A stretch of 64,000 nt of DNA from Escherichia phage mogra. A program made the position numbers and the translations under genes. Positions 44,792-63,509 of this stretch are shown here, in pieces; within the stretch, counting starts at the first letter, position 1, and every line of letters begins with the position of its first letter. The stretch lies in the sequence record MN850579.1. The stretch is one strand, 5' to 3'. The notes below the pieces were generated by a model. That model had not been told where the DNA came from and searched no databases. It worked only from the letters and a program-made list of their open reading frames with translations.

Positions 44792-45355
44792 ATGAACTTA
44801 TTTGATGATGACGTCCAACTTAACGAGCACCAAATTGCATGGAAGTCTAACGACGCTGATGCGATTCAAAAATGTGCTGACATGTTTAAAGAAAAACCTG
44901 AGAATGAATTCTTTAAAATCATTAATGCTATTAATGAAAAGAAATCTATGTCAATTGCTCAGGTCGACTACTCAAAATTTATGGTTGAGAACTCATTATC
45001 CCAGTTCCCAGAATGTATGCCAGCCGTTTACATGATGAACTTAGTCGGTTCTGAATTAAGTGATGAAGCGCACTTCAACTATATGATGGCGGCAATTCCA
45101 CGTGGCCGACGATTCTCTAAATGGGCTAAACTAGTCGAAGACACTTCAGAGTTACTAGTTATCAAACTGTTGATGAAACATTACACAATCAACATGAATG
45201 ATGCTACCGAGTATAAGCGGCTCCTTGAAAAAAATAACAAGTTGCCAATAGTCCTTAAAGAACTGAAGGCCATGGTCACTGATGAGTTTCTCAAAGAAGT
45301 TACAAAAAATGTGAAAGAACAAAAACAATTTAAAAAATTAGCATTGGAATGGTAA
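44792..45355 (+). CDS. 62: clamp loader small subunit gp62
   Basis: 187 aa; directly follows gene 44. Confidence 0.8.
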
Positions 45356-45357
45356 AA

Positions 45358-45726
45358 ATGATCGAAATTAAATTGAAGAACCCCGAAGATTTTCTGAAAG
45401 TCAAAGAGACTCTGACCCGTATGGGCATCGCTAATAACAAGGATAAAGTTCTTTATCAGTCCTGTCATATCCTCCAAAAGCAAGGTAAATATTACATCGT
45501 CCACTTTAAAGAAATGCTGCGTATGGACGGACGTCAGGTTGATATTGATGGTGAAGACTATCAGCGACGTGATTCGATTGCTCAGTTGCTTGAAGACTGG
45601 GGATTGATTGTTATTGAAGACTCTGCTCGTGAAGATCTGTTTGGCCTGACTAATAACTTCCGTGTTATCTCTTTTAAACAGAAAGATGACTGGACTTTGA
45701 AAGCAAAATATACAATTGGTAATTAA
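45358..45726 (+). CDS. regA: translational repressor RegA
   Basis: MIEIKLKNPEDFLKVKETLTRMGIANNKDKVLYQSCHILQK; near-identical to T4 RegA. Confidence 0.92.
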   Translation: MIEIKLKNPEDFLKVKETLTRMGIANNKDKVLYQSCHILQKQGKYYIVHFKEMLRMDGRQVDIDGEDYQRRDSIAQLLEDWGLIVIEDSAREDLFGLTNNFRVISFKQKDDWTLKAKYTIGN

Positions 45727-45730
45727 AGCA

Positions 45731-45748
45731 ATGGGACTTCGGTCCCAT
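45731..45748 (+). terminator. stem-loop between regA and gene 43 (weak terminator or processing/regulatory hairpin)
   Basis: ATGGGAC-TTCG-GTCCCAT; only a short T run. Confidence 0.4.
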
Positions 45749-45807
45749 TTGGAGTATAATAAGTTCATCAACAAACAAAAGACAATAACTCGTCTAAAGG
45801 AAATTAA

Positions 45808-48519: not shown

Positions 48520-48559
48520 TATAATGCCAAGGACGGCCAACTAATTAAATGAGAGAAAT

Positions 48560-49195
48560 ATGAAAACTACACCAATCACTATCGCTATTGACGCAATTGT
48601 AAAACAAGCTTCATCTCTTGCCACTATGGCTAAAGTAATTAGTCAAAACCATGCTCGTTATAATGCTATTCTAGAAACTCTTCGACGCCCTGGACTTAGT
48701 AATTATGAAAGCCGGGTAATTATTACAGGTGTTGGTAAGAATGCTAATATCGCAACTAAAGCTTCCGAGACTTTTGCTTCACTAGGTATTCCTAGCATGT
48801 ATTTGAATACCGGGCATTATTCTCATGGTGACGCAGGATTTATTGCACCTAATGATGTATTAGTTCACATCAGTCGTTCTGGTAAGACTGAAGAAATGAT
48901 AGGTGTTGCTAAACATCTTCGTATGATTCGTCCTCAGGTTAAACAGATTCTGTTACATTGTAACCCTGACATTCCACAAGAATACGAAGCTCTTTTTGAT
49001 TATACGTTCTGTACCGGTATCGCGGTAGAAGTTGACGAGAACTCTTTAGCTCCGACAATGTCTACTACATTGTTGTTAGCGCTTATCGATACGTTCGCTA
49101 TCAACCTTTCGTCTGAACGTGGATTTACCTCTAATGATTTCCTTAAGTTCCATCCAGGCGGTGCACTAGGTGCCATGTTACGAGGCGAACAATGA
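48560..49195 (+). CDS. SIS-domain sugar-phosphate isomerase, arabinose-5-phosphate isomerase-like
   Basis: ITGVGKNANIATKASETFASLGIP and ISRSGKTEE resemble KdsD/GutQ-type SIS motifs. Confidence 0.7.
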   Translation: MKTTPITIAIDAIVKQASSLATMAKVISQNHARYNAILETLRRPGLSNYESRVIITGVGKNANIATKASETFASLGIPSMYLNTGHYSHGDAGFIAPNDVLVHISRSGKTEEMIGVAKHLRMIRPQVKQILLHCNPDIPQEYEALFDYTFCTGIAVEVDENSLAPTMSTTLLLALIDTFAINLSSERGFTSNDFLKFHPGGALGAMLRGEQ

Positions 49196-49335
49196 AAGCA
49201 ATAACAATAGGACTTTTACTATTGATGCTTGCCATGACTATCTACTGGAGCTTAACGGCTCCGGTAATGATTCCAACACTTGTAATTGGATGGATTATGA
49301 TTGGACTACAAGCAAAGTATGAATGCTTTAACTAG
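49192..49335 (+). CDS. small membrane peptide (47 aa)
   Basis: ATGA overlap with SIS gene; one TM helix; not in ORF track. Confidence 0.35.
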   Translation: MKAITIGLLLLMLAMTIYWSLTAPVMIPTLVIGWIMIGLQAKYECFN

Positions 49336-49376
49336 AATAGTGTACAATACTCCTACTTACCAATGAGGACTTCAAC

Positions 49377-51062
49377 ATGAAAAAAGCTGTTATTCTTGGT
49401 GCTGGACTGGCAACTCGTTTGTATCCAATAACGCATCATATTCCTAAGGTGCTTGTGAACTATAAACAAGACACTATTCTGAGCAATTTGTATACAATTT
49501 ATTCTGACCTTGGCGCAGATGAAATTATTGTAGTAGTTCATTCAAAATTTGCTGAAACTGTTCGAGCTTATTGTGAGCAAGAAGGGTTCAATGTGACTAT
49601 TCGTACAGTTGATGAAGCGTATGGTTCTGCTTATGCTCTTGCTAAATTACACAAAGATTTAGACGGTCATAATGTAATTGTTAACTGGTGCGATATTATT
49701 CCTGATTTTGGTTCATGGTCTTGGAATGTTAACGCAATCTATGTTAAGGGTGATGAATGTCGATATAATTTCGACGGTGAAAATATCACTAACGTAGGTT
49801 CAACAGGTGGTAATGTTGTAGGAATTTATCAGTTCAAAGACTGGGAATTCTATATGGGTTCTACTGATGAGGAAATTCATGAATACTGCAAAGGACGTGA
49901 TTTCGTAGAATTCCTTTACAGCGCCGCATTCAATAAATCAGAGCTTATGAATCTAATTGATTTAGGTGATATGCCTAAACTTGAAAAGGCTCATGAAGTT
50001 CGTGAACTTAATCGTAGTTTTAACGCAGTTGAAATTGGTGAAGAAACTGTAACTAAATTCGCATTAACCGAACAGGGTCGAGCTCTTCAGAAAGATGAGA
50101 TTTCATGGTATTTGAAAGTGAAATCAGATTCAGTTCCTCAGTTAGTTTCTGTTAATGAAAATAACTTTGAAATGGAACGCATTAAAGGTAAGCCAGCATT
50201 TGAATATATTAAATCCAAATCAAGTCTTGCTCGTCCACAAATTGTTGATGCAATTTTAGATGCACTGAAATTCAGCACAGACACTTATTTTGTAAGTCCT
50301 GAAACTGTTCGTCGTGATTTCACTAAAGAATTCTATACGAAAGTTATTGATCGTTGTGAAAGCATTCAACCATTGATTGATTCATTTGGTAAAATCACGC
50401 ATGTGAACTACACTAAGATTGGACGTCTGAAGCCAATGCTGAAACAAGCTTTAGAACACCTTATTCGTTATCATAACCGTTCTCAGGGACAGTACTCTGT
50501 TATTCATGGCGACCCGAACTTCAGTAATACTATGATTACTGATAATGGCGAAGTCAAGTTTATCGACCCTCGTGGATATTTTGGTGAAACCAAGATTTAC
50601 GGGCCGAAATTGTACGACGAAGCTAAAGTGCTTTACGCTGTTTCAGGTTATGATGAATTCAACGCTAATCCGACCTGGGGGCAGTTTACTATTGATGAAA
50701 CAACTTGTAATGTGACTATTAACATCAATCCATTAGTTTACAAATATGGAAAGATGAGTTCGTTTAACGAGTATCATCATTTGGCAGTGGCAATTATCTG
50801 GATTGCATTAGGTGGTTATTTCAAGAATAATCCACTTAAAGCGGTAGCCGCATATTATAAAGGTATGGAACTTCTGACTAAGCAATTACGTAACATGGGC
50901 CGTGTACTTCAGGACGGCTCTATTAGTTATGACGTAGCAGAACCTGTAACGGCTACTCTGATTACAAAAAATCCTGGTAAGTGGGTACTAACTGATAAAG
51001 AAACTGGTGTTTCCTATCGTCCAATAGGTGGCGATATCACTCATCAATGGGAACGAATCTAA
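49377..51062 (+). CDS. bifunctional sugar-1-phosphate nucleotidyltransferase / APH-type kinase
   Basis: N-terminal ILGAGLATRL (GxGxR NTP-transferase motif); C-terminal HGDPNFSNTMI...IDPRGYFG (choline/aminoglycoside-kinase-like). Confidence 0.7.
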   Translation: MKKAVILGAGLATRLYPITHHIPKVLVNYKQDTILSNLYTIYSDLGADEIIVVVHSKFAETVRAYCEQEGFNVTIRTVDEAYGSAYALAKLHKDLDGHNVIVNWCDIIPDFGSWSWNVNAIYVKGDECRYNFDGENITNVGSTGGNVVGIYQFKDWEFYMGSTDEEIHEYCKGRDFVEFLYSAAFNKSELMNLIDLGDMPKLEKAHEVRELNRSFNAVEIGEETVTKFALTEQGRALQKDEISWYLKVKSDSVPQLVSVNENNFEMERIKGKPAFEYIKSKSSLARPQIVDAILDALKFSTDTYFVSPETVRRDFTKEFYTKVIDRCESIQPLIDSFGKITHVNYTKIGRLKPMLKQALEHLIRYHNRSQGQYSVIHGDPNFSNTMITDNGEVKFIDPRGYFGETKIYGPKLYDEAKVLYAVSGYDEFNANPTWGQFTIDETTCNVTININPLVYKYGKMSSFNEYHHLAVAIIWIALGGYFKNNPLKAVAAYYKGMELLTKQLRNMGRVLQDGSISYDVAEPVTATLITKNPGKWVLTDKETGVSYRPIGGDITHQWERI

Positions 51063-51448
51063 TGCACCGCGTAGAAAACATGCTTAATCTTTGTTTTGAT
51101 GTCGATGATTGTATAACAGAGTGGAATAACAATCGTGATTACGTGAACTTCAAGCCAGACGTCGAAATGGTGTCTGCCATTAATGCCCTGTATGATGCAG
51201 GGCATACCATAACGCTTTACACTGCTCGCGGTATGAAGTCAGTCGGTCCTGGTCGTATAGCAATTGACATTCTCCCAAGTCTGATTCAGAACTTGGCAAA
51301 CATTGGCTTGAAGTACCATAATTTGCTAACACATAAACCAGTATATGATTGGATTATCGACGACAAAGCTATGCGTCCTGACGAATTCAAAGCTCTTATG
51401 AATAAAGGCGAATTCGAAACATTTAAATCATATAAACCGAATCTATAA
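51062..51448 (+). CDS. HAD-superfamily phosphatase (small, capless)
   Basis: Motif I FDVDDCIT, motif II ITLYTAR, Lys and WIIDDKA motif IV; TAATG coupling to upstream gene. Confidence 0.6.
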   Translation: MHRVENMLNLCFDVDDCITEWNNNRDYVNFKPDVEMVSAINALYDAGHTITLYTARGMKSVGPGRIAIDILPSLIQNLANIGLKYHNLLTHKPVYDWIIDDKAMRPDEFKALMNKGEFETFKSYKPNL

Positions 51449-51508
51449 TAATTTAAGTAAGACCTGCAAAAAAAAACCATCGCATCAATTAACGCGAGAT
51501 GCAAAAAA

Positions 51509-52669
51509 ATGAATACTTTTAAAATCGGAACGAATTTTGATTTAGCTCTTCTTGATAAAATCGTAGAGCTCAATAAAACTTATCCTAATAGCTTGATAAA
51601 TGAAGTATACGGCTCTACAAGAGAAATGGCTTTTGTAGCAGCCAGACCTGATTTTAGGCTTCCTGACATTGACAAAAAGATGTTAGAAGATTATGTTAAA
51701 CGTTGTAACGAATTAGGTATTTGCTTTAACTATACACTCAACACGATAAATCCTGGTTCAAAAAGAGAACTAGTTGAGTGGAAGAAGAAAGCTATTCAGG
51801 ATTATGTTCAGTATCTTTGGTCAATAGGCGTATGGCGTATTACTATCGCTAACCCTGTTGTTATGGAAATTGTTCGTGAAGTCAATAAAGACATTGAGAT
51901 TGAAGTTTCAACAATTCTACATGTCGATGCTGTAACTCAAATCAAATACTTGCATGACCAGTATAATATCAAAAAGGTCTGCTGTGGAATTCATAAGAAC
52001 CGTTCAGTTTCTTTCCTGAAGCGTGCAGCAGAGTTTTGCAATAAGAACAATATAATATTTGAAGTTCTTGTAAATGAGTTCTGTTCTAATGCTGGTAAAG
52101 GGTATACAACACATTGTAGCTATCGTGACTCTTGCTATATTTTCCATAGTACTGATGTTACAGCTGATGATGCTAAATCCTTAAACGGATATCCAATGCA
52201 GCACTGTATTAAAGCTCGTGATACAGACCCATTTAACTGGTTGAGAACTCGTTTTGTTCGTCCTCAAGATTTGAAACTTTATAATGATATCGGTATCACT
52301 CAATTCAAAGTTTCAGGACGTACAGGTAGCACAGACTACATTTTGAAAGTTCTTGAAGCATACGCTTCTGAAAAGTTTGAAGGTAATTTGTTAGAACTGT
52401 GGAAGCCTTTAGAGACTATTTTCACTCTTGAAAACGAAACTGAGTTTTCACATACAGTAAATATTGAAACCTCTTTGTTAGATGGCTTTTTAGAAAAAAG
52501 GTGGTTCAGACATCCAGATTTCGATTGTGCTAATGAAATCTGCGGGACGACGTGTACATATTGTGAAAGATATTATAAACGTCAATTATCTAAAAACGGG
52601 TTAGCAGAAAACTCTATATCTATTATTGATATAACTAACTCTGATGACGCTTTGAGGTACCCGGAATGA
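51509..52669 (+). CDS. peptidase U32-family-like protein (family includes O2-independent hydroxylases)
   Basis: EVYGS, FVAARPDF..LEDYVKRCNELGICFNYTLN, NEFCSNAGKG..HCSY Cys-rich signature and FKVSGRTGS (compare KIEGR) resemble U32 family; by eye only. Confidence 0.35.
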   Translation: MNTFKIGTNFDLALLDKIVELNKTYPNSLINEVYGSTREMAFVAARPDFRLPDIDKKMLEDYVKRCNELGICFNYTLNTINPGSKRELVEWKKKAIQDYVQYLWSIGVWRITIANPVVMEIVREVNKDIEIEVSTILHVDAVTQIKYLHDQYNIKKVCCGIHKNRSVSFLKRAAEFCNKNNIIFEVLVNEFCSNAGKGYTTHCSYRDSCYIFHSTDVTADDAKSLNGYPMQHCIKARDTDPFNWLRTRFVRPQDLKLYNDIGITQFKVSGRTGSTDYILKVLEAYASEKFEGNLLELWKPLETIFTLENETEFSHTVNIETSLLDGFLEKRWFRHPDFDCANEICGTTCTYCERYYKRQLSKNGLAENSISIIDITNSDDALRYPE

Positions 52670-52905
52670 TTTCTAGAAAAACTTTTAACCACCGACTTAA
52701 TGAAGAGATTTTGACTATGAAACTGAACACTAATGAACAAATTCTTAAAAAGGCCCTGATGGGCCTGTTTGAAACTAAAGCGGCTAAAGTGATTAAAGAA
52801 CCTGTTCAATTGGAATACTACGCTGATGCATTTCTTCATAGTGTTCTTGGAAGTATCGATGCTGAATCTTTACGTTATATCAACATTGTCAAGAAATTCA
52901 AATAA
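52666..52905 (+). CDS. hypothetical protein
   Basis: ATGA overlap with U32-like gene. Confidence 0.5.
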   Translation: MISRKTFNHRLNEEILTMKLNTNEQILKKALMGLFETKAAKVIKEPVQLEYYADAFLHSVLGSIDAESLRYINIVKKFK

Positions 52906-52947
52906 GCTTTACGAATTGAGTATATAATAAATTGTATTGAGGTAAAC

Positions 52948-53664
52948 ATGGGAAAACATAACACAATGAAATATATCAAAGCCGCAGATTTTCAAACCGC
53001 ATTTAAAGCAGTCAATCGTGAAATTTTAGAAAACCCGGAATTCGTAACTGATTCTCGTATTGGACGTTGTAATGAAATTGGGTCTATGACAGTAGTTGTT
53101 GACACTCCATCATCATTCAAAATGACCGACCCACGTATTAACCGCATCTCTTATGAATATGCCGAAGACTTCTGGAAGTTTATGATTTCCGGTGGTACCA
53201 ACGCAGAAGAAGCGTTTAAGGCATATCCTAATGTCGCTAAATTTATTTCTAAACCAAAATCAGATGTTTTGCCGGCGAACTTCAACACTTTCTATGGTCC
53301 TCGCATTGCGGCCCAATTACCAGCTCTTCTAAAAGAACTTAAAGAGAAGCCTAACTCTCGAAGAGTTGTGTTCCAAATTCTAGAAAGTTCTGATCAGGCT
53401 TTGCTTGATTCGGACGAAACGCTTGAATATCCATGTACTGACTCAGTGACTTATTATATTCGTGATGGTAAGCTTTATACCCACTGTCATATGCGTTCTC
53501 AGAACTGTGCTGTTGTTATGCAGTTGGATTTTTATCTCCAAGGAAAATTACTTCATTATATCGCTAACGAATGTGGTGTAGAAGTTGGTGATTATACTCA
53601 TACCATGGTAAGTGCCCATGTGTTTGAACGTGATTTTGATTATGTTAAAGGATTCCTTGACTAA
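52948..53664 (+). CDS. 42: dCMP hydroxymethylase gp42 (thymidylate-synthase fold)
   Basis: TS-family motifs PNSRRVVFQ and EYPCTDSVTYY (catalytic Cys); position as T4 gene 42. Confidence 0.8.
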   Translation: MGKHNTMKYIKAADFQTAFKAVNREILENPEFVTDSRIGRCNEIGSMTVVVDTPSSFKMTDPRINRISYEYAEDFWKFMISGGTNAEEAFKAYPNVAKFISKPKSDVLPANFNTFYGPRIAAQLPALLKELKEKPNSRRVVFQILESSDQALLDSDETLEYPCTDSVTYYIRDGKLYTHCHMRSQNCAVVMQLDFYLQGKLLHYIANECGVEVGDYTHTMVSAHVFERDFDYVKGFLD

Positions 53665-54563
53665 TGGCTATTTTCCGCGTACCAATCTTGAGTATGCGGT
53701 CTTATGAAACTGGACAGTATGCTATCCTTAAGGATGGCAACTTCCAACTTCATTTGCACCGTGCTAATCCAGGCGATGTGATTACATATCCACGTAATGC
53801 ATCTGATATTAAAGAATGTGAACGTCTTTTCCCAGAATTTAAGTTTGTTCCATTATGGTATAAAGATAACGCGTATAACACTCGTAAATATTTCTGGTCC
53901 GAAAATGAATTTGTGGTTGATTCATTAATTGCTTATTATGATTGTGATTTTCTAATCACAGATATCACTGGATATAACGGCGCTTTTGATGTAGAATTCA
54001 ATTTCAATATCACGGCAGACCCTAATAAACCACGTTTTTATATTGGCGAATTCTTAAAAACCGATATGTTGTCAGTTAATAGTTCACTTCAAACTACTGT
54101 GTTGAATGAACGTCAAAAAGAAGTGCTGGTTAACGCAGGTGCAGATGGTAATAAGATTATCGTAACTCAGAAAGTTATACGTCCTTCCATCATGCAGCGT
54201 CTTGTAGGTGATTTGGCTCCTATTCATCTAGATGGTATTTTTCATCCATTTCGAATTAGTGACCCGTGCTATCGTTTTGAACAAGTGGTTGAATGTGCAA
54301 TTCAATTAGGCCAACCGCTTTATATAACCGATCCAAATAATAGCTTCGACAGAAATAAGTATCCTGAAGAAGCGCTGATTCGAATTTTTAAACCAACTAA
54401 AACTGAGTACTATCAAATTCTTAAAGGACGTCCGAAGATTCAATATTTCGAAAATCCTGAAGAAGTATTTCATCCAGGTCTTGGTGAGTTCATCTACTTT
54501 AATGCTTTAATTTCTTCGCCGTATAATATACCTAAATACGAAGATGTCGTAATCGAGGAATAA
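53664..54563 (+). CDS. hypothetical protein in the beta-gt position; candidate DNA sugar transferase
   Basis: TAATG coupling to gene 42; 299 aa; no resemblance to recalled T4 beta-gt. Confidence 0.5.
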   Translation: MAIFRVPILSMRSYETGQYAILKDGNFQLHLHRANPGDVITYPRNASDIKECERLFPEFKFVPLWYKDNAYNTRKYFWSENEFVVDSLIAYYDCDFLITDITGYNGAFDVEFNFNITADPNKPRFYIGEFLKTDMLSVNSSLQTTVLNERQKEVLVNAGADGNKIIVTQKVIRPSIMQRLVGDLAPIHLDGIFHPFRISDPCYRFEQVVECAIQLGQPLYITDPNNSFDRNKYPEEALIRIFKPTKTEYYQILKGRPKIQYFENPEEVFHPGLGEFIYFNALISSPYNIPKYEDVVIEE

Positions 54564-54564
54564 A

Positions 54565-55113
54565 ATGGCTAAAATTATTTTAGTAGATGGCCCGGATAAT
54601 GCCGGTAAAACAACTTTCATTAATGACATAATGGAAATTAGTGAAAGATATGTAAAGATTGATTTCCCTAAACGAACAGTTGATGGACGTTTCGATGTTA
54701 AGTCTCGAAATGAAGTTGGTTGTTTCGAAACGATGTTGAATTATTTAGACCCTACTAAGATTTATCTGTTAGACCGTGGATATATTAGTAACTGGGTTTA
54801 TGGACGTATTCGACAAGATGCGGACTCTGTTCTTGATGTTTATGAGCAGGATTATGTTCGTCTTTGCCAAAACCATGATGTGTTCACAATTATTTTAACA
54901 CGTAACGAAATGACTGAAAGTTTTGAAGACGACCTTATTACTTTGTCTTCATTCGGTTTTAATACAGTCATTTCACATTTTGAAGAGTTTGCAATTCATA
55001 ACAAAATCCAAACGTATCAATTACTTAATCATGATGGTGCTAACAAAGTTATAGGATTTAATGCAAGCGAACGTAATGGTTTGATTACAGAAATCATCAA
55101 ATGGGCTCGTTAA
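54565..55113 (+). CDS. P-loop kinase (nucleotide or sugar kinase-like)
   Basis: Walker A VDGPDNAGKTT; LDRGY (DRY-like) motif; 182 aa. Confidence 0.6.
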   Translation: MAKIILVDGPDNAGKTTFINDIMEISERYVKIDFPKRTVDGRFDVKSRNEVGCFETMLNYLDPTKIYLLDRGYISNWVYGRIRQDADSVLDVYEQDYVRLCQNHDVFTIILTRNEMTESFEDDLITLSSFGFNTVISHFEEFAIHNKIQTYQLLNHDGANKVIGFNASERNGLITEIIKWAR

Positions 55114-55133
55114 GAGCCATTTAAAGTTTTAAA

Positions 55134-55158
55134 TGCTGTATAACCCTTAGTATATAAT
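55134..55158 (+). promoter_or_regulatory. candidate middle promoter for uvsX
   Basis: MotA-box variant TGCTGTA, 12 nt spacer, TATAAT 55153. Confidence 0.4.
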
Positions 55159-55211
55159 CGTCTTATCTTTTAAACATGAGTAAAATATAATGATGCCTAT
55201 GGAAAAATACA

Positions 55212-56384
55212 ATGTCTGATTTAAAATCTCGTCTGATTAAAGCTTCTACTTCTAAAATGACTGCAGACTTGACTAAGTCTAAGCTGTTTAATAATCGTGA
55301 TGAAGTCCCTACTCGTATTCCGATGTTGAATATCGCACTAGGTGGTGCTCTGAATGCAGGATTGCAATCAGGCTTGACTATTTTTGCTGCACCTTCTAAA
55401 CATTTTAAAACATTGTTTGGACTGACCATGGTTGCAGCATATATGAAGAAATATAAAGATGCAATTTGTTTGTTCTATGATTCGGAATTTGGTGCTTCAG
55501 AATCTTATTTTCGATCAATGGGTGTTGATTTAGACCGAGTAGTTCATACTCCGATTCAATCTGTCGAACAACTTAAAGTTGATATGACTAATCAGCTTGA
55601 CGCGATTGAACGCGGCGATAAAGTTATTATCTTTATCGATTCAATCGGTAATACTGCATCTAAGAAAGAAACCGAAGATGCGTTGAACGAGAAAGTTGTA
55701 GGTGATATGTCTCGTGCTAAGGCACTTAAATCTCTTTTCCGTATTGTGACTCCTTATCTGACTATTAAAGATATTCCATGTGTTGCAATCAACCATACAG
55801 CAATGGAAATTGGCGGATTGTATCCTAAAGAGATTATGGGCGGCGGTACAGGTATTCTTTACTCGGCTAACACTGTATTCTTTATCTCTAAACGTCAGGT
55901 TAAAGATGGCACTGAATTGACCGGTTATGACTTCACGTTGAAAGCAGAAAAATCTCGCACAGTTAAAGAGAAATCTACTTTCCCAATCACAGTTAATTTT
56001 GATGGTGGTATCGACCCATTCAGTGGCTTGTTAGAAATGGCAACTGAAATTGGATTTGTTGTTAAGCCTAAAGCCGGTTGGTATGCTCGTGAATTCCTTG
56101 ACGAAGAAACAGGCGAAATGATTCGTGAAGAGAAATCGTGGCGTGCTAAAGCTACTGATTGTGTAGAATTCTGGGGACCGTTGTTTAAACACAAACCTTT
56201 CCGAGATGCAATTGAAACTAAATATAAACTAGGTGCTATCTCTTCTATTAAAGAAGTTGATGACGCTGTTAACGACCTTATTAATTGCAAAGCAACAACT
56301 AAAGTTCCTGTTAAAACTTCTGATGCTCCGTCTGCAGCAGATATAGAAAACGACCTTGACGAAATGGAAGATTTCGATGAATAA
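55212..56384 (+). CDS. uvsX: recombinase UvsX (RecA-like)
   Basis: 390 aa; P-loop FAAPSKHFKT; T4 synteny. Confidence 0.93.
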   Translation: MSDLKSRLIKASTSKMTADLTKSKLFNNRDEVPTRIPMLNIALGGALNAGLQSGLTIFAAPSKHFKTLFGLTMVAAYMKKYKDAICLFYDSEFGASESYFRSMGVDLDRVVHTPIQSVEQLKVDMTNQLDAIERGDKVIIFIDSIGNTASKKETEDALNEKVVGDMSRAKALKSLFRIVTPYLTIKDIPCVAINHTAMEIGGLYPKEIMGGGTGILYSANTVFFISKRQVKDGTELTGYDFTLKAEKSRTVKEKSTFPITVNFDGGIDPFSGLLEMATEIGFVVKPKAGWYAREFLDEETGEMIREEKSWRAKATDCVEFWGPLFKHKPFRDAIETKYKLGAISSIKEVDDAVNDLINCKATTKVPVKTSDAPSAADIENDLDEMEDFDE

Positions 56385-56718
56385 TCTCGTTGATTTAAAT
56401 CTAGAAATCGTTGATGAATCCCCTTCTTCGGAAGGGGAAGACATTCGCAAAGAACGAGTGTTTAATGAATCTCTTAAAATTGTCCGTTCAGCAATGGAAA
56501 ATGTCATTCAAGAGATTCTGATTACACTTGAAGACGGTTCCCATCATATAGTCTATATTACAAAACTAGACTGGGTTGATGGTAAAATCGTAATGGACTT
56601 TGCAGTTCTTGACCAGGACAGAAAAGCAGAACTTGCACCACATGTTGAAAAATGTGTTACAATGCAAGTACAACAAGCTTTTAATGAACGGACCAAGAAA
56701 AAATTTAAATTCTTTTAA
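56377..56718 (+). CDS. 40: gp40 head vertex assembly chaperone
   Basis: 113 aa; overlaps uvsX stop; between uvsX and gene 41. Confidence 0.7.
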   Translation: MNNLVDLNLEIVDESPSSEGEDIRKERVFNESLKIVRSAMENVIQEILITLEDGSHHIVYITKLDWVDGKIVMDFAVLDQDRKAELAPHVEKCVTMQVQQAFNERTKKKFKFF

Positions 56719-56727
56719 GGAGTTATC

Positions 56728-58170
56728 GTGGTAGAAATTATTTTGTCTCATCTCGTATATGACCAGGCTTATTTTTCTAAGGTCTGGCCTTATATGGATT
56801 CTGAGTATTTTGAGCGTGGACCGGCAAAAAACGTCTTTAAAATTATAAAGAGCCACGTTAACGAATATAATGCAATGCCATCTATCAATGCATTAAAGGT
56901 GGCTTTAGATAACAGTTCTTTAACTGAAGCCGAATATAAAGGAACTTCAGACCTAATTGAAAAATTGGCTGATACTCCTGAAGACCACGAATGGTTGGTT
57001 AAAGAAACTGAGAAATATGTCCAGCAAAAAGCGATGTATAATGCTACGTCTAAAATCATTGAGATTCAGTCTAATGCTGAACTACCTCCAGAACAACGTA
57101 ACAAGAAAATGCCCGACGTAGGAGCTATTCCTGATATTATGCGTCAAGCACTTTCAATTTCGTTTGATAGTTATATTGGGCATGACTGGATGGAAGACTA
57201 TGAAGCACGCTGGCTTTCTTATCTGAACAAAGCACGTAAGGTCCCGTTCAAATTAAACATTTTGAATAAAATCACCAAAGGCGGCGCAGAAACAGGTACA
57301 CTAAACGTTTTAATGGCTGGTGTTAACGTCGGTAAATCTTTAGGCCTTTGTTCACTTGCTGCAGATTATCTTCAAACAGGTCATAATGTTCTTTATATTT
57401 CAATGGAAATGGCTGAAGAAGTTTGTGCTAAGCGTATAGATGCAAACATGCTTGACGTATCACTCGATGATATTGATGATGGTAACGTATCTTATGCTGA
57501 ATATAAAGCCAAGATGGAAAAATGGCGTTCAAAAACAACATTAGGACGTTTAGTAGTTAAACAGTATCCTACTGGTGGAGCTAATGCTAATACATTTCGT
57601 GCATTGCTTAATGAGTTAAAACTTAAGAAGAACTTTGTGCCATCTGTAATCATGGTTGATTACTTAGGTATTTGTGGGTCTTGTCGTATCAGAGTTTACA
57701 CTGAAAATAGCTACACATTAGTTAAAGCTATCGCAGAAGAACTTCGTGCATTAGCAGTAGAATCTGAAACAGTTCTATGGACTGCAGCTCAAGTAGGACG
57801 TGCAGCATGGGATGCTTCAGACATGAACATGAGTGATATCGCAGAATCAGCAGGTTTACCAGCAACGGCAGATTTCATGTTGGCTGTAATTGAAACCGAA
57901 GAACTTGCACAAGCTGAACAACAACTTATCAAACAAATCAAATCACGATACGGCGATAAGAATAAGTGGAATAAATTCCTGATGGGTGTACGTAAAGGCA
58001 ATCAGAAATGGGTTGAGATTGAGCAAGAAGGCATGAACACACCTAACACAGTAAATGAAAACGCAGGTGCTCAGATGCGTCAGGCAGAGGTGAATCGTAC
58101 GGAACGCGTAGGTAAAGCCAAAGCAACACGTGCTGACCTAGATAGCTTAGCCAATGAGTTAAAATTTTAA
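56728..58170 (+). CDS. 41: replicative DNA helicase gp41 (DnaB-like)
   Basis: MVEIILSHL..DQAYFSKVWPYMDSEYFE matches T4 gp41; Walker A GVNVGKSLG; GTG start. Confidence 0.93.
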   Translation: MVEIILSHLVYDQAYFSKVWPYMDSEYFERGPAKNVFKIIKSHVNEYNAMPSINALKVALDNSSLTEAEYKGTSDLIEKLADTPEDHEWLVKETEKYVQQKAMYNATSKIIEIQSNAELPPEQRNKKMPDVGAIPDIMRQALSISFDSYIGHDWMEDYEARWLSYLNKARKVPFKLNILNKITKGGAETGTLNVLMAGVNVGKSLGLCSLAADYLQTGHNVLYISMEMAEEVCAKRIDANMLDVSLDDIDDGNVSYAEYKAKMEKWRSKTTLGRLVVKQYPTGGANANTFRALLNELKLKKNFVPSVIMVDYLGICGSCRIRVYTENSYTLVKAIAEELRALAVESETVLWTAAQVGRAAWDASDMNMSDIAESAGLPATADFMLAVIETEELAQAEQQLIKQIKSRYGDKNKWNKFLMGVRKGNQKWVEIEQEGMNTPNTVNENAGAQMRQAEVNRTERVGKAKATRADLDSLANELKF

Positions 58171-58175
58171 TAAAA

Positions 58176-58196
58176 AGGAGACTTCGGTCTCCTTTC
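58176..58196 (+). terminator. terminator-like hairpin after gene 41
   Basis: AGGAGAC-TTCG-GTCTCCT then TT. Confidence 0.5.
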
Positions 58197-58258
58197 GGGG
58201 TTTACATCTTCCTCTAGGCATGATATGATGTACTTACACAAACCAAGAGGAAAACATT

Positions 58259-58633
58259 ATGAATATGTCTCAAGCAATTTTTACTGCAATCACCGAAAAC
58301 ACAACTGTTGAAGTAGTTTCTCCGCTGGCAACTTACGTTATTCTTGCTCCTAAAACTATTGTATCTCGTATGGAAAACATGGGCAAACGTATCGTACAAA
58401 TTGTTGGAGCCGGAAATCAAAAACTTGATTATCTACGAACCATCAAAGCTTATGAACATTTCCAACTCGAAAAAGGTTCTCCTATCCAGGTAGAACTCGT
58501 AAATGGTGATATCGTTCGAGCAATGTTCCATCATTTCTATGCATTGAATGACCCATCTAAAGCGGTTCGTTTAATTGCATATGACGCAAACCAAAACGAA
58601 ATCAACGCGGATATATCTAAATTACGTTTTTAA
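58259..58633 (+). CDS. hypothetical protein
   Basis: 124 aa; insert between genes 41 and 61. Confidence 0.5.
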   Translation: MNMSQAIFTAITENTTVEVVSPLATYVILAPKTIVSRMENMGKRIVQIVGAGNQKLDYLRTIKAYEHFQLEKGSPIQVELVNGDIVRAMFHHFYALNDPSKAVRLIAYDANQNEINADISKLRF

Positions 58634-58684
58634 GTTTACTTCTCCAGTAGTTGTGTTATTATAGACCTATCAACTACTGGAGAA
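58634..58684 (+). promoter_or_regulatory. early promoter inside a 14 bp perfect inverted repeat whose 3-prime arm carries the SD
   Basis: GTTTAC 58634; arms TTCTCCAGTAGTTG 58640-58653 and CAACTACTGGAGAA 58671-58684. Confidence 0.6.
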
Positions 58685-58688
58685 CAAA

Positions 58689-59006
58689 ATGAAAACCATC
58701 GATTGTAAAGCAGAATTTAAGATTTTTTATCACGGTTCAAGTAGTTCAGCTAACATCGAAAACATGCTTTGTCCTCCTGAAGAAACAGGAGTTCTGTCTG
58801 AAACTGGACGTAAGAAAAACTTGGATCGTGTATTCTTTACTGAAGATATCGGTTTAGCAAAGATTTATGCAGGACGAGCAGCACGCTCTTATGGAGGTGA
58901 ACCACGTCTCTATCGAGTAATTTCTCCGGTAGATGTAGTTCAAATGAATGATACTAAAGGCGCTACAGTTTATCACGCTGAATGGGCATTTTGCGAGGAA
59001 ATATGA
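58689..59006 (+). CDS. hypothetical protein (YHGSSS motif)
   Basis: 105 aa. Confidence 0.5.
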   Translation: MKTIDCKAEFKIFYHGSSSSANIENMLCPPEETGVLSETGRKKNLDRVFFTEDIGLAKIYAGRAARSYGGEPRLYRVISPVDVVQMNDTKGATVYHAEWAFCEEI

Positions 59007-59191
59007 GCAAATTAACTAAAGTTACTTTTATCGGTTGGTTTAAAAGCGGTGAGATGTTCACTAAAGATATCATGTTATCAGGTGATCGCGAAGAAATCGA
59101 GTGGGTTACGGTACAACTTGCTGAAGTGAACAAAGCATTAGTTAAAGCATTTGTTAATGACGAGAAAGTTTTTGAAGCAGATTTTCGATAA
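59003..59191 (+). CDS. hypothetical protein
   Basis: ATGA overlap. Confidence 0.45.
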   Translation: MSKLTKVTFIGWFKSGEMFTKDIMLSGDREEIEWVTVQLAEVNKALVKAFVNDEKVFEADFR

Positions 59192-59204
59192 TTTTAAAAT
59201 AACT

Positions 59205-59234
59205 GTTTACAAGCACCACATACTGTGTTACTAT
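59205..59234 (+). promoter_or_regulatory. T4-type early promoter (lipoprotein gene)
   Basis: GTTTAC 59205; TACTAT 59229. Confidence 0.5.
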
Positions 59235-59262
59235 CTTTCTATCAACTACAGAGGAAATTGAA

Positions 59263-59631
59263 ATGAAAAAATTAATCGCTTTAGCAATGGTATTTGGATT
59301 AACCGGATGTGGTGCCCATGGCTTTATCCCTAATAACGTTGGCCAACTGATTTACAATCCGAATGTTAAACAGTACGACCAACCTAAAGTTGAAGTGGAA
59401 GACCCGGTTACTGTAGGTAATCGAATGATTCAAGCTGATGCTCATGCTCAACGTTATCGTGATTCTGATACTGTAGCATTGTCAAAAGAACAACGCGTTA
59501 AAGAACATTGTCTACAGGCTACTGAAATTGCATTCATTCGCTATGTTGAAACAACTGGTAAAGAGCCTACCCAGAAACAAATCGCGAATAACTACGTCCA
59601 GTGTATTGAACGTTTAAACAAATTTAATTAA
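59263..59631 (+). CDS. lipoprotein
   Basis: Signal peptide with lipobox LTGC. Confidence 0.6.
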   Translation: MKKLIALAMVFGLTGCGAHGFIPNNVGQLIYNPNVKQYDQPKVEVEDPVTVGNRMIQADAHAQRYRDSDTVALSKEQRVKEHCLQATEIAFIRYVETTGKEPTQKQIANNYVQCIERLNKFN

Positions 59632-59634
59632 TTG

Positions 59635-59664
59635 GTTTACACCAAAGTTAAAATAAGATACTAT
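59635..59664 (+). promoter_or_regulatory. T4-type early promoter
   Basis: GTTTAC 59635; TACTAT 59659. Confidence 0.5.
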
Positions 59665-59692
59665 AAACATAACAAATCAAGAGGAAATTAAC

Positions 59693-59941
59693 ATGGAATT
59701 ATTCGTAGCTAGTTCAGTAGCAGTTTTAATCGCAGGTATTGGTTCAATCATCATTTACATGTTGCCTTGGGTAATCGCACTTATTCGTGGCACAAAAAGC
59801 ACAACAGCAATCTTCTTTGTATCTTTACTCTTTAACTGGACGATGGTTGGTTGGATTGGAACTTTAATTTGGTCTATCGTTGCCGAAAAGAAATCTGCTC
59901 AGCAGCATCAACAAGTAATTATTATTCGCGAAAAAGAATAA
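59693..59941 (+). CDS. membrane protein
   Basis: Two TM helices. Confidence 0.55.
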   Translation: MELFVASSVAVLIAGIGSIIIYMLPWVIALIRGTKSTTAIFFVSLLFNWTMVGWIGTLIWSIVAEKKSAQQHQQVIIIREKE

Positions 59942-59944
59942 ACT

Positions 59945-59988
59945 TGTTTACATTATAGATGGACTATAGTATAGTAGTCCTATCAAAT
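59945..59988 (+). promoter_or_regulatory. early promoter / stem-loop cassette (GGACTA..TAGTCC family)
   Basis: GTTTAC 59945. Confidence 0.5.
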
Positions 59989-60004
59989 CAACTAAGGAGT
60001 TAAA

Positions 60005-60298
60005 ATGAAAAAGTTATCATTGGCAGCAATCTTACTTGCAGTATCATGTGCACCGGCTCCAGTTACGGCAGGTTATGATAAAGACCTCTGTGAGTGGTCA
60101 ATGACTGCAAATCAAGAAGATGTTGAACAACAAATCTTCTCTGATATCATGAACATCACTAAACGAGACCGTCCTAATATGGTTAATAAAGTTGTTGAAC
60201 AACTTAAGTCTGGCGGTATCATGCAGTACAACTATGTTTTGTATTGTGACCCTAATTTCGATAACAAAGATATCGTAACCGAAATCACAGGTGAATAA
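60005..60298 (+). CDS. secreted protein / probable lipoprotein
   Basis: Signal peptide with lipobox-like AVSC. Confidence 0.55.
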   Translation: MKKLSLAAILLAVSCAPAPVTAGYDKDLCEWSMTANQEDVEQQIFSDIMNITKRDRPNMVNKVVEQLKSGGIMQYNYVLYCDPNFDNKDIVTEITGE

Positions 60299-60299
60299 T

Positions 60300-60950
60300 A
60301 TGATTTATTATATACACAAAAATGCACCATTTAAATATGGTAAATTTCCTAATGCACAATGCTATAATATAACGCCGAATGAAAATAATAACGGATACCA
60401 TATTGGTGTAATTTTTGTAATTGTTAAAGATAACGAAATCGTTGCCTGGGCAGATTTTAAAGGTACAACATATGATGTTAATCCTGTGCCTTTCACATAT
60501 TACAATATAATGGATTTGGCATATGATTATAATTGGTTTAATCATGACACGTTGGCTCATATTGAAGGTGTAGGATTTGACATCTCTTATTCTAGCTATT
60601 CATTATGTCCTATGAGCCGAGCTCACGGTAAAGATGCATCGTATCTTTCAATTCGTAAACGTGTAAACTTCAAACGTAGTACAGAGTATGTTGGTGGACT
60701 CTTTGTTAAAGATAATAAAATAACCCGTATTAGTTATCCTTTAAGTGTGGGACAAAAAGATGTTGATGTCGATTTAGACTTAACTGAAAATAACATTAAT
60801 CGTATTGCTTCTGTATATTTTGATATCGATGAAAAAATTGTAGTGTGTGGATACGAATTACCACCTGAAGAAAAGGCTGAAGCAATTGAAGTCGAATTAG
60901 AAATTTCTGTTGATGACCAAATATTTAATGCATTTATGAATCGAGGTTAA
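60300..60950 (+). CDS. hypothetical protein
   Basis: 217 aa. Confidence 0.5.
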   Translation: MIYYIHKNAPFKYGKFPNAQCYNITPNENNNGYHIGVIFVIVKDNEIVAWADFKGTTYDVNPVPFTYYNIMDLAYDYNWFNHDTLAHIEGVGFDISYSSYSLCPMSRAHGKDASYLSIRKRVNFKRSTEYVGGLFVKDNKITRISYPLSVGQKDVDVDLDLTENNINRIASVYFDIDEKIVVCGYELPPEEKAEAIEVELEISVDDQIFNAFMNRG

Positions 60951-60951
60951 A

Positions 60952-61149
60952 ATGACTACTGCAATTTGCACTGGTTCTAAAATTAGTGTTTTTACAAGTT
61001 TTGAAGATTATGAAGTTGTTTCAAAACACCAATGCCATATTAGCGTAAAAGCTAATGACGGTGTAATTTGGAATATTCCACAGTATGAAGGCACTACATA
61101 TGAAGTCACAGATATAAATGGTGACAAAGCAATCTTTGTAATTGATTAA
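60952..61149 (+). CDS. hypothetical protein
   Basis: 65 aa. Confidence 0.45.
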   Translation: MTTAICTGSKISVFTSFEDYEVVSKHQCHISVKANDGVIWNIPQYEGTTYEVTDINGDKAIFVID

Positions 61150-61168
61150 ATATACTCAGGAGGTACCT

Positions 61169-61636
61169 ATGGGTATTATTAACACTGCAATAGATTCTGT
61201 TTATGCATATAAGTTTATTCGACTAATGCAAAAACCTTTTACCGAATGGAAAGCATATGAAGCCAAAATCATCGATGAACGTGGAAGTGTTCTTAAACGC
61301 CCTTCCACTCCTGAAGAGAAAGCGGCTTATACACCTTTTCATGCTTCAGTTCGTTCAATGAAGCGAATGATGAGCACTGTTCCAGGTCTTAATGGAATGG
61401 CCTCAATGATGTCTGCTTGGAGTGCTGTAGCTTCACGCTATAACATTACTGAAGAACAACAGAAAGAAATATTTAAAGAACTCCCTTTATTTGAGGATAT
61501 GGTTGCTGGCGATTCAGGTGGCAGCCCTCAAGCTATTGCATCAGGAACTACTACAGGTGCAATTGTAAATAAAGGTCCCGAACAAATTCCTTCCAAGAAA
61601 AGAAAGCGAATTAAAGTAAATATTAATAAGTTGTGA
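61169..61636 (+). CDS. hypothetical protein with basic C-terminus
   Basis: SD ggagg; C-terminal KKRKRIK. Confidence 0.5.
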   Translation: MGIINTAIDSVYAYKFIRLMQKPFTEWKAYEAKIIDERGSVLKRPSTPEEKAAYTPFHASVRSMKRMMSTVPGLNGMASMMSAWSAVASRYNITEEQQKEIFKELPLFEDMVAGDSGGSPQAIASGTTTGAIVNKGPEQIPSKKRKRIKVNINKL

Positions 61637-61675
61637 TAAGATGGCCTTATTAATTTAAGGCCTCTGGAGAATACT

Positions 61676-62698
61676 ATGGCTGAATGGATAGATAATGAAT
61701 TTGCTTATCGTGCGTTTTCTCACCTACCTCGTTTTAGACAAATCAATAATTCAAGCACATTTAAATTAACATTTCGATGTCCAGTTTGTGGCGACTCCCA
61801 GACAGATGCAATGAAAGCTCGCGGATGGTATTATGGCGGTACTCCTGGTAATGTGCATTGCTATAACTGTCAATACCACAATACAATTTCCGGATACTTA
61901 AAAGAGTATGATGAAGAGCTTTATCGCGAGTATCTAATGGAAGTTCGTAAAGAAAAAGCTAGAATGGAACCAAAGATTGAAAAGGTTCCTGAACATAAAC
62001 CAGAACCGGAGAAAAAGACTATAAATTCTTTGCCGTCTTGTTCTCGTCTGGACAAGCTGCCTGAAGAGCATCCTATTGTGAAATATGTTAAGTCTCGGTG
62101 TATTCCTAAAGAATCATGGAACAGATTATGGTTCACATTAGAATGGCCTAAATTGGTCAACAAGATTCAACCTGGTACGTATAAGAAAGAGATTCCTGAA
62201 CCGCGTTTAGTTATTCCTATTTTTAATAAAGATGGGAAGGCCGAGTCGTTCCAAGGACGTGCACTTCGTAAAGATGCTCCTCAGAAATATATCACTATTA
62301 AAGCATTTGAGTCTGCAACAAAAATTTATGGTGTTGAACGTGTTAAGGAAGGAGACGTCTGGGTAATGGAAGGCCCTATTGATAGTTTATTCATACCCAA
62401 TGCAATCGCTATTACAGGCGGCTCAATAGATTTAGATGTGGTACCATTTAAAGAACGTCGGGTATGGGTAATGGATAATGAACCTAGGCATCCGGATACT
62501 ATAGCTCGTATGAAGCGATTAGTTGATGCAGGCGAACGTGTCATGTTCTGGGATAGAGCTCCATGGAGTTCAAAGGATGTTAATGATATGGTAATGAAAG
62601 AAAATGCAACACCACAAGAAATTTTAGAATATATGAAACAGAATATTTCAAGTGGGTTGCATGCTAAAATGAGATTATCTCGTTATTCGAAGATTTAA
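61676..62698 (+). CDS. 61: DNA primase gp61
   Basis: Zinc ribbon CPVCGDS...CYNCQYH; 340 aa; downstream of gene 41. Confidence 0.85.
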   Translation: MAEWIDNEFAYRAFSHLPRFRQINNSSTFKLTFRCPVCGDSQTDAMKARGWYYGGTPGNVHCYNCQYHNTISGYLKEYDEELYREYLMEVRKEKARMEPKIEKVPEHKPEPEKKTINSLPSCSRLDKLPEEHPIVKYVKSRCIPKESWNRLWFTLEWPKLVNKIQPGTYKKEIPEPRLVIPIFNKDGKAESFQGRALRKDAPQKYITIKAFESATKIYGVERVKEGDVWVMEGPIDSLFIPNAIAITGGSIDLDVVPFKERRVWVMDNEPRHPDTIARMKRLVDAGERVMFWDRAPWSSKDVNDMVMKENATPQEILEYMKQNISSGLHAKMRLSRYSKI

Positions 62699-62892
62699 AC
62701 AAGCCCTATAACGGCAAAAGCTAGGTCAACTACAGTATCCAACGGAACAGAAGGAACCATAACACCATGGGCAACTAACAATGGTGCAATTCCGAAGTTC
62801 CATGAAATAATGCCACCTACAACTATTGCAGCGATAGCAGTTTTCTTTTTATTGCCTTTAATAGCATTGATTAACGATGGAAGTTTAAACAT
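62695..62892 (-). CDS. small membrane protein (only supported minus-strand gene)
   Basis: Lies in the 61-56 intergenic gap; strong SD aaggag 7 nt upstream on minus strand; TM helices. Confidence 0.55.
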   Translation of the reverse strand: MFKLPSLINAIKGNKKKTAIAAIVVGGIISWNFGIAPLLVAHGVMVPSVPLDTVVDLAFAVIGLV

Positions 62893-62981
62893 AATATCTC
62901 CTTAGTTACCTATTATTTATTACGCTTTATAAAATTAATGGTAGAATTAAACTCTCTTATACTGAATTGAAAGGAAAAATA

Positions 62982-63503
62982 ATGGCGCACTTTAATGAAT
63001 GTTCACAACTTATTTCTGGTGTTGATAAAGCAGAAGAAGCTTATTTTAATGCTCTGATTCACGAAGATAAAGACCCACTTCAGGTAATGCTTGATATGCA
63101 GAAATCTTTACAGGTTCGTCTGGCAAATGACAAGCCTGAACATAACAAACATCCTGATGAATTGGCTACTGCTGGTGATGTTGTTGATTGGCTGCGTAAT
63201 CAGAAAGATTATATTGATGATGAATTCCGTGAACTGTTGACTTCACTTGGTGGTATGAGCAATGGTGAAAAAGCCGCCAGCAGTGTATGGAAGCCTTGGA
63301 AAGCACAACATGCTGAATATCGAAATCGTCGTATCGATGAACTGTCTCCTGAAGACCAGCTTGAAATTAAATTTGAGATGATTGATATTCTTCATTTCGT
63401 TCTGAATATGTTCCAGGGTCTTGGTCTTACAGCAGAAGAAATCTTTAAACTTTACTACTTGAAAAACCAACACAACTTTGAACGCCAGGATAATGGTTAC
63501 TGA
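62982..63503 (+). CDS. 56: dCTPase-dUTPase gp56 (MazG-like)
   Basis: MAHFNEC..DPLQVMLDMQ..YYLKNQHNFERQDNGY matches recalled T4 gp56. Confidence 0.85.
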   Translation: MAHFNECSQLISGVDKAEEAYFNALIHEDKDPLQVMLDMQKSLQVRLANDKPEHNKHPDELATAGDVVDWLRNQKDYIDDEFRELLTSLGGMSNGEKAASSVWKPWKAQHAEYRNRRIDELSPEDQLEIKFEMIDILHFVLNMFQGLGLTAEEIFKLYYLKNQHNFERQDNGY

Positions 63504-63509
63504 TTAAGT

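Follow-up and report, generated by a model that had tools for sequence, protein, structure and literature searches.

The 64,000-nucleotide stretch of Escherichia phage mogra analysed here (sequence record MN850579.1; hereafter the window) carries nine open reading frames (ORFs) between gene 41, encoding the replicative helicase, and gene 61, encoding the primase. This interval is very probably the RB69-type form of a standard cluster of early genes, variable in content, that is found between genes 41 and 61 in T4-like phages. An earlier note on the same sequence had described it as a 3.4 kb accessory insert, on the premise that genes 41 and 61 are adjacent in T4. The premise is false, since in the T4 genome (NC_000866) 1648 bp with the genes dmd, 61.4, sp, 61.2 and 61.1 separate the two, and the description as an insert, which rests on it, is at odds with the genes found in this interval in every lineage examined. 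Both the cluster and its position, like four of its nine genes, are already known T4/RB69 biology, and GenBank has included the arrangement ever since the RB69 genome. Selick et al. 1993 (J Virol) reportedly dealt with the T4 genes between the primosome genes 41 and 61.

The comparative maps were obtained with tblastn on 28 fetched loci, together with the annotated intervals of phages KpV477, IME08 and Apostate. Each of the six T4-like lineages examined has from 4 to 14 genes between 41 and 61, and adjacency was found in none. KpV477 (Jiaodavirus) has four genes in the interval, T4 (Tequatrovirus) five, IME08 (Dhakavirus) eight, the RB69-like window phage nine, RB69 itself (Mosigvirus) ten and Acinetobacter phage Apostate (Twarogvirinae) fourteen. 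Universal presence of the same ORFs between 41 and 61 in T4-like phages had been named in the earlier note as evidence against an insert, and this is largely what was found: dmd, sp, 61.2 and 61.1 occupy the interval in T4, and sp and a 61.1 homologue are constant there in every Spackle-carrying lineage examined, with the remaining genes coming and going.

In the window, 3505 bp (58171–61675) separate the gene products (gp) gp41 and gp61. The nine ORFs that had been counted there are present, all on the plus strand and tightly packed, and homologues of all nine occur in other phages. A Shine-Dalgarno sequence precedes every one of them. The starts of dmd (59003), adfA (60300) and 61.1 (61169) were corrected against the annotation of phage JK45. 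Five of the encoded proteins score above the Pfam curated cut-offs (Dmd, DUF5481, Imm_superinfect, T4_Spackle and AdfA), and PHROGs concurs. Aligned pairwise with their T4 counterparts, they are 58% (Dmd), 35% (Imm.1), 63% (Imm), 66% (Spackle) and 65% (AdfA) identical. Several of the ORFs are short (62–65 residues) and four have no annotated function, as would be the case if some were chance open frames in a non-coding spacer. This is extremely improbable for a set in which all nine frames have a Shine-Dalgarno sequence, are packed tightly and without overlap on one strand and, with the exception of ORF124, have protein-level homologues at 33–90% identity in other genera.

A reading along the lines of the earlier note would make the interval a moron-type insert, a foreign accessory island gained recently between formerly adjacent genes. 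The doubled length of the interval relative to T4 (3505 vs 1648 bp) and the restriction of ORF124 to RB69-like phages would suit such an origin, but ORF105 and full-length 61.1 are found in the same interval of Apostate, a phage of another subfamily, and are known from 609 and 1473 phage records, respectively. Because these two genes occupy the Apostate interval and are widespread, T4 can be regarded as the reduced form. The imm.1–imm pair lies elsewhere in the T4 genome, and the interval is rich in promoter motifs of a type linked to modular shuffling; both features would agree with an island. However, T4-like phage families account for all the genes, none of which has bacterial or other foreign relatives, and a compositional break was not found, the guanine-plus-cytosine (GC) content being 0.32–0.41 within the interval and 0.33–0.43 in its flanks. 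With genes 41 and 61 adjacent in none of the six lineages and the interval populated in every one, a foreign insert was rejected as highly improbable.

The variable cluster has in the window the form known from RB69. Window positions 45000–63507 match RB69 at 97.6% and 96.8% identity, apart from the 203-bp absence of gene 61.4. The annotated order in RB69 (NC_004928) is 41, ORF041c, ORF040c, dmd, 61.4, imm.1, imm, sp, 61.2, ORF033c, ORF032c together with 61.1, and 61. Gene 61.4 is cleanly missing from the window (59184–59205 against 7751–7963 of the RB69 locus L003, 203 bp), so that the stop of dmd is joined to the promoter region of imm.1. It is also absent from JK45, JK42 and the AV109 group, and both forms are common among the deposited RB69-like phages. 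The Dhakavirus loci have two 61.4-like copies in the interval. A proposal that T4 gp61.4 is an Imm paralogue was rejected, as a forced alignment gives 20% identity and 61.4 is a separate gene co-occurring with imm in RB69. Shigella phage JK45 is 99% identical to the window across the entire 41–61 interval, and no less than 80% of its length is covered in each of 152 phage records. The JK45 record (NC_054940, locus L001) assigns this phage to Tequatrovirus and RB69, 97–99% identical in the 41–61 region, belongs to Mosigvirus; the label may be outdated. The features of the interval and its flanks are given in Table 1.

Table 1. Genes and regulatory-like elements in and next to the 41–61 interval of the window
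Feature	Position	Strand	Basis or remark
Gene 41, replicative helicase (left flank)	56728–58170	+	tblastn: 85% identical to T4 gp41, 100% to RB69 gp41; JK45 annotation
UUCG-loop hairpin, then early-promoter-like site	58174–58195, then 58200–58229	+	PeSL-like terminator–promoter composite
ORF124 (= RB69ORF041c)	58259–58633	+	phrog_10668 at 3e-86
Early-promoter-like site	58634–58662 (within 58634–58688)	+	upstream of ORF105
ORF105 (= RB69ORF040c)	58689–59006	+	105 residues; predicted minimal ADP-ribosyltransferase fold
dmd (61.5), antitoxin against the RNases RnlA and LsoA	59003–59191	+	Pfam Dmd; T4 Dmd 58% identical
Early-promoter-like site	59205–59234	+	upstream of imm.1; same sequence kept in RB69, where 61.4 lies just upstream
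imm.1 homologue (DUF5481), predicted lipoprotein	59263–59631	+	Pfam DUF5481; annotated imm.1 in RB69
Early-promoter-like site	59635–59664	+	upstream of imm
imm, superinfection immunity inner-membrane protein	59693–59941	+	82 residues; Pfam Imm_superinfect
Early-promoter-like site	59946–59975	+	upstream of sp
sp (61.3), Spackle, periplasmic inhibitor of gp5 tail lysozyme	60005–60298	+	Pfam T4_Spackle; PDB 6x6o
adfA (61.2), anti-DarT factor A	60300–60950	+	216 residues; Pfam AdfA
ORF65 (= RB69ORF033c)	60952–61149	+	phrog_3249 at 3e-33
Gene 61.1, full length	61169–61636	+	155 residues; phrog_2086; match to T4 gp61.1
Hairpin between 61.1 and gene 61	61639–61665	+	−13.6 kcal/mol, z −2.1
Gene 61, primase (right flank)	61676–62698	+	tblastn: 74% identical to T4 gp61, 100% to RB69 gp61

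The sole peculiarity of the RB69 type is the location of the imm.1–imm pair beside sp and not between genes 43 and 42. The small membrane protein encoded at 59693 had been described as a two-helix protein, and hydropathy agrees, with two hydrophobic segments in its 82 residues (windows above 1.6 begin at residues 1–16 and 40–41). The Pfam match (Imm_superinfect, PF14373, at 1.6e-15) and the full-length alignment with its T4 counterpart identify this protein as Imm. The gene is present in a single copy, and there is no second imm in the window. Imm and Spackle are the two classical exclusion proteins of T4, which jointly give superinfection exclusion (PMC7677548). The DUF5481 gene, imm.1, always lies directly upstream of imm, a pattern seen in four lineages and at two positions in the genome. 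The pair is found between 43 and 42 in T4 (11374–12014 of locus L002) and in two metagenomic lineages (L004, 6001–6631; L006, 3355–3977), and in the 41–61 interval, beside sp, in RB69 and the window (59263–59941). The pair behaves as a cassette because this strict adjacency is kept at two genome positions, which is also the best argument for a shared role of the two genes.

Between genes 43 and 42 of the window, a 113-bp stretch (49213–49325) is 70% identical to the T4 imm–42 intergenic region (E 1e-7), and the RB69 record notes the same. It lies between an SIS-domain gene and a nucleotidyltransferase gene and probably either marks where imm formerly lay or represents a regulatory element conserved upstream of gene 42. 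Such a relic fits an ancestral imm between 43 and 42, with later relocation beside sp. The 43–42 interval of the window encodes an SIS-domain sugar isomerase (48560–49195), a 561-residue nucleotidyltransferase/kinase (49377–51062) and a U32-peptidase homologue (51509–52669), and a 299-residue ORF (53664–54563) stands where T4 has its beta-glucosyltransferase gene. The RB69 record splits the 561-residue and the 299-residue genes into two ORFs each. These genes (48560–54563) are presumably the RB69-type arabinosyl-hydroxymethylcytosine DNA modification module.

The protein encoded at 60005, with the motif AVSC, had been listed as the second of two lipoproteins. Its signal peptide is real, and its lipoprotein status was not supported, since the protein is Spackle and the T4 orthologue is soluble; one lipoprotein, Imm.1, is predicted in the interval. 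The assignment as Spackle is based on Pfam (PF25676 at 1.1e-42 over residues 1–96) and on PDB entries 6x6o (1.4e-39) and 7cn6 (1.1e-33). A 22-residue Sec signal peptide, MKKLSLAAILLAVSCAPAPVTA, ends with A-x-A and is followed by GYDKD. The chains in the PDB begin at residue 23, and N-terminal sequencing of T4 Spackle released from the periplasm demonstrated cleavage after residue 22 and a soluble protein (PMC7650644). C29 and C81, the two disulfide cysteines of the mature helical bundle, do not vary in the alignment, and the disulfide has been shown for T4 Spackle (PMC7650644, PMC7677548). According to the published work on the T4 orthologue, Spackle forms a 1:1 complex with gp5's lysozyme domain.

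Within the Spackle signal peptide (60005–60070), all 18 distinct homologues compared, which come from four genera (loci L008–L028), have Ser14-Cys15. A strict lipobox is met by T4 (LASC), IME08 (VASC) and KpV477 (VSSC), that is, in three of the four genera, and the AVSC of the window meets only the looser PROSITE-style rule. The Ser-Cys motif is not mentioned in the two Spackle structure papers. Judged by this conserved residue, Spackle may be partly lipid-anchored through Cys15; a membrane-bound fraction would have escaped notice because the T4 N-terminus came from protein released from the periplasm.

The lipobox LTGC noted at 59263 is real, with the cysteine at residue 16, and by its sequence the protein is a homologue of T4 Imm.1 (Pfam DUF5481, PF17578, at 3.7e-9 and 37.3 bits, with the cut-off at 27). 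Lipoproteins were predicted with a rule requiring Lys/Arg in the n-region, a hydrophobic core and a lipobox [LVI][ASTVI][GAS]C with the cysteine within residues 15–35. The N-terminus, MKKLIALAMVFGLTGC, has a strict lipobox and Gly at position +2, not the Asp retention signal; Imm.1 is probably a lipoprotein sorted to the outer membrane by the standard +2 rule. Most family members have a lipobox, among them T4 Imm.1 and the distant P0128 and P0129; in P0002 and P0125 an ordinary signal peptide replaces it. The RB69 type of Imm.1 is represented in 154 phage records and the T4 type, at about 33% identity, in 502, and each genome has a single copy. Across 1.8 billion representatives, an exhaustive profile search yielded six proteins, two of them new; a word-indexed search gave 3 and then 6 proteins, and the family amounts to 6–8 clusters in billions of proteins. 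In the structure model, with a predicted local distance difference test (pLDDT) score of 60, only the C-terminal helical hairpin (residues 75–120) is confident. Our literature search found no usable functional account of imm.1.

Envelope lipoproteins had been proposed to mediate superinfection exclusion or receptor masking. Exclusion does apply to two of the three envelope proteins, Imm and Spackle, the first an integral membrane protein and the second, on the experimental evidence, a soluble periplasmic protein and not a lipoprotein. Two readings of Imm.1 were considered here. The first, which is tentative and seems rather unlikely, takes imm.1–imm as a mobile two-gene exclusion cassette, with Imm.1 as a third component of T-even exclusion that would act beside Imm, either in the periplasm or at the outer membrane. 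Weaker additions to it are a partial lipid anchor on Spackle through Cys15 and a counter-defence role for the dmd-coupled ORF105. If true, all this would apply to T4 and RB69 alike and would not be specific to the window. The second, that Imm.1 is the region's actual exclusion factor, masking an outer-membrane receptor like T5 Llp or Cor, possibly with lipid-anchored Spackle, is unlikely. Conservation of the lipobox extends beyond the window to T4 and two distant members, but P0002 and P0125 lack its cysteine, which indicates that lipid anchoring is not essential to the family. Two conserved cysteines and the predicted export fit an envelope role, as does the strict synteny with imm at two genome positions; against this, the structure model is poor and no similarity to any known protein was found. 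Between the T4 and RB69 types, Imm.1 (33–35% identity) has diverged much faster than Imm, as is typical of arms-race proteins, yet T4 exclusion is genetically explained by imm and sp (PMC7677548). The invariant lipobox-like motif of Spackle speaks for the factor, and the soluble state of T4 Spackle, with its N-terminus at residue 23 (PMC7650644), against it.

Half of the cluster is cytoplasmic, with known or likely counter-defence roles (Dmd, AdfA and possibly ORF105), and went unseen in the earlier note. Dmd, encoded downstream of gene 41, matches positions 3–59 of the 60-position Pfam profile (PF17587 at 7.2e-21) and is a phage antitoxin blocking RnlA (PMC5308261). AdfA matches its profile over the full length (PF23813 at 2.9e-119, positions 1–211 of 211) and has two substitutions relative to RB69 AdfA. 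The AdfA protein, first discovered in RB69, binds DarT; the variant with Arg164 neither binds nor neutralises DarT1, and the variant with His does (PMC11257639). At residue 168, corresponding to RB69 residue 164, the window protein has Arg (ENNINRIAS), like wild-type RB69, and T4 has His. As read from its sequence, AdfA of the window is a family member carrying the non-neutralising allele for the tested DarT1. Like wild-type RB69, the window phage may be sensitive to the DarTG1 system in question, provided that no other factor, for example AdfN (gene 30.3), is intact.

The stop codon of ORF105 overlaps the dmd start (ATGA). Its product is 60–90% identical across T4-like phages of Escherichia, Klebsiella, Acinetobacter, Aeromonas and Vibrio. 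No homologue was found in T4 coordinates 15000–30000 (L002), and no T4-type record is among the tblastn matches listed. The predicted structure is confident (pLDDT 86.3), with a fold closest to Tpt1 and Arr, and the alignment shows no variation at H15-G16, Y60, R63 and E103 or in a basic GRKKNL loop. H15, Y60 and E103 are candidates for the His ... Tyr ... Glu/Asp triad of a split beta-sheet fold binding nicotinamide adenine dinucleotide (NAD). Neither the single sequence nor a profile matched a known ADP-ribosyltransferase in Pfam, NCBIfam or the PDB, and Arr-like phage ADP-ribosyltransferases were not found in a literature search; a few GenBank records label ORF105 a putative ADP-ribosyl transferase. 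A constant pairing of ORF105 with dmd was rejected, as the small ORF downstream of it in RB16 and Apostate is not Dmd. ORF105 may be a new counter-defence enzyme.

Three further genes complete the cluster. ORF124 was found by tblastn in 134 phage records, 132 of them at no less than 95% identity, with two diverged relatives at about 36%, and has no match in Pfam, NCBIfam or the PDB. ORF65 has homologues of 66–71% identity at the same place in the Dhakavirus loci; its identification with T4 61.1 was rejected, as the two do not align and the next ORF is the 61.1 homologue. T4 gp61.1 (54 residues) aligns to residues 102–141 of the window protein at 73% identity and, as judged from this alignment, T4 61.1 retains only the C-terminal third of the full-length protein, including the motif DMVAGDSGG...GAIVNKGPEQIP. 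Of the phage records containing 61.1, 588 are near full length, among others in Acinetobacter, Aeromonas, Klebsiella and Vibrio phages. In most T4-like phages, as in the window, the protein has 155 residues, and its gene is in every case located just upstream of the primase gene, Apostate included. In the RB69 record 61.1 is divided between two ORFs, possibly through a frameshift or an error in sequencing. Directly after gene 61, a 65-residue hydrophobic ORF (62695–62892), hypothetical in both RB69 (ORF029w) and JK45, is the sole minus-strand gene of this early region.

The motif GTTTAC-N16-18-TAnnnT occurs at 24 sites in the window, against 2.8 expected from shuffles, and 23 of the 24 are on the plus strand. 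Five of these plus-strand sites are intergenic in the 41–61 interval, upstream of ORF124, ORF105, imm.1, imm and sp. The statement that the nine ORFs have their own early promoters thus holds, in terms of early-promoter-like sites, for five of them and not for the other four. Early expression of the cluster is inferred from these motifs. The hairpin after gene 41 has a fold energy of −22.9 kcal/mol (z −2.8). A 14-bp stem-loop extends from the promoter spacer to the ribosome-binding site of ORF105 (−21.7 kcal/mol, z −5.5, with none of 200 shuffles as stable). In T4-type phages, PeSL elements combine a stem-loop of the AGNA-loop-TCNT type with a TTTACW-N17-TAYWAT promoter and belong to hyperplastic regions (PMC4122927). 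A PeSL-type arrangement is seen at 58174–58229, where AGGAGAC-UUCG-GUCUCCU is followed by GTTTACA...TATGAT; the other four of the five promoter sites have no preceding stem-loop. Known RNA families were not found in 57500–62500, with no Rfam match at E up to 0.1.

Immediately after infection the cluster would be transcribed, both along with the replication genes and from early promoters of its own, and its small proteins would then protect the infected cell as the property of the phage. As published for the orthologues, Imm in the inner membrane would bar DNA entry of a second T-even phage, and Spackle, once exported and processed, would bind and inhibit the lysozyme domain of the gp5 tail spike of the incoming phage. 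Likewise from work on the orthologues, Dmd would bind the host RNase toxins RnlA and LsoA, and AdfA the DNA ADP-ribosylating toxin DarT, the Arg164 allele being inactive against the tested DarT1. The probable site of action of Imm.1 is the envelope, together with Imm or next to it, and ORF105 could be a small NAD-using transferase, possibly another counter-defence enzyme. The larger size of the interval would mostly reflect ancestral content lost or truncated in T4 (ORF105, ORF65 and full-length 61.1), to which the lineage-specific ORF124 and the imm.1–imm cassette would be added.

Several points weigh against this picture. The functions in the window phage are transferred from T4 and RB69 orthologues at 58–99% identity, and the five promoter sites amount to consensus matches. 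The term exclusion and counter-defence covers the four known genes and is a guess for ORF124, ORF65, 61.1, Imm.1 and ORF105, the last having a predicted fold only. In addition, plasmid-borne imm alone is said, in the work of Lu and Henning, to confer immunity, so Imm.1 would not be required for the Imm phenotype.

Genes 41 and 61 were never adjacent in the T4-like phages sampled, and this corrects the view of the region. The 41–61 interval is a long-lived hotspot where genes for exclusion (imm and sp) and for counter-defence (dmd and adfA) have gathered. Imm.1 accompanying imm, the conserved ORF105, 61.1 beside the primase gene and the Ser-Cys motif of Spackle are leads for T4 biology generally.

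Among known systems, T5 Llp and Cor of T1 and phi80 were the analogy drawn in the earlier note. They share with Imm.1 the character of a small early phage protein with a lipobox; however, no similarity in sequence or fold was detected, and the known exclusion activities of the cluster belong to non-lipoproteins. ORF105 resembles Arr (a rifampin ADP-ribosyltransferase), the NAD-binding domain of Tpt1/KptA and AcrF11 in its predicted fold and in the conserved His-Gly-Ser ... Tyr ... Glu pattern, but it is shorter (105 residues), has its own conserved basic GRKKNL loop and lacks a sequence match in Pfam or the PDB. The hyperplastic regions and PeSL cassettes (PMC2839356, PMC4122927) are similar to the interval in having variable small early ORFs between core genes and dense TTTACW-N17-TAYWAT promoters, whereas in the window only one of the five promoter sites, that right after gene 41, has a stem-loop.

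The imm.1–imm pair has the same order as in T4, with a lipobox protein of about 122–125 residues followed by a two-segment Imm of 82–83 residues. It differs in genomic position, in an Imm.1 only 35% identical and in the spacer between the genes, which is 61 bp long with its own promoter-like site in the window and 8–15 bp in T4 and the metagenomic lineages. T4 genes 61.1–61.5 correspond to the cluster in position, strand, early expression and the order of dmd, sp, 61.2 (adfA) and the C-terminal part of 61.1, and the shared proteins are 58–66% identical. In contrast to T4, the window has ORF124 and ORF105 before dmd, ORF65, a three-fold longer 61.1 and, at the position of T4 61.4, the imm.1–imm pair. 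The closest counterpart is the layout of RB69 ORFs 031c–041c and of about 150 RB69-like phages: apart from having no 61.4 and a 61.1 that is a single 155-residue frame, the window shares with them a common gene order, 97–99% nucleotide identity, the Arg164 allele of AdfA and the location of imm.1–imm beside sp.

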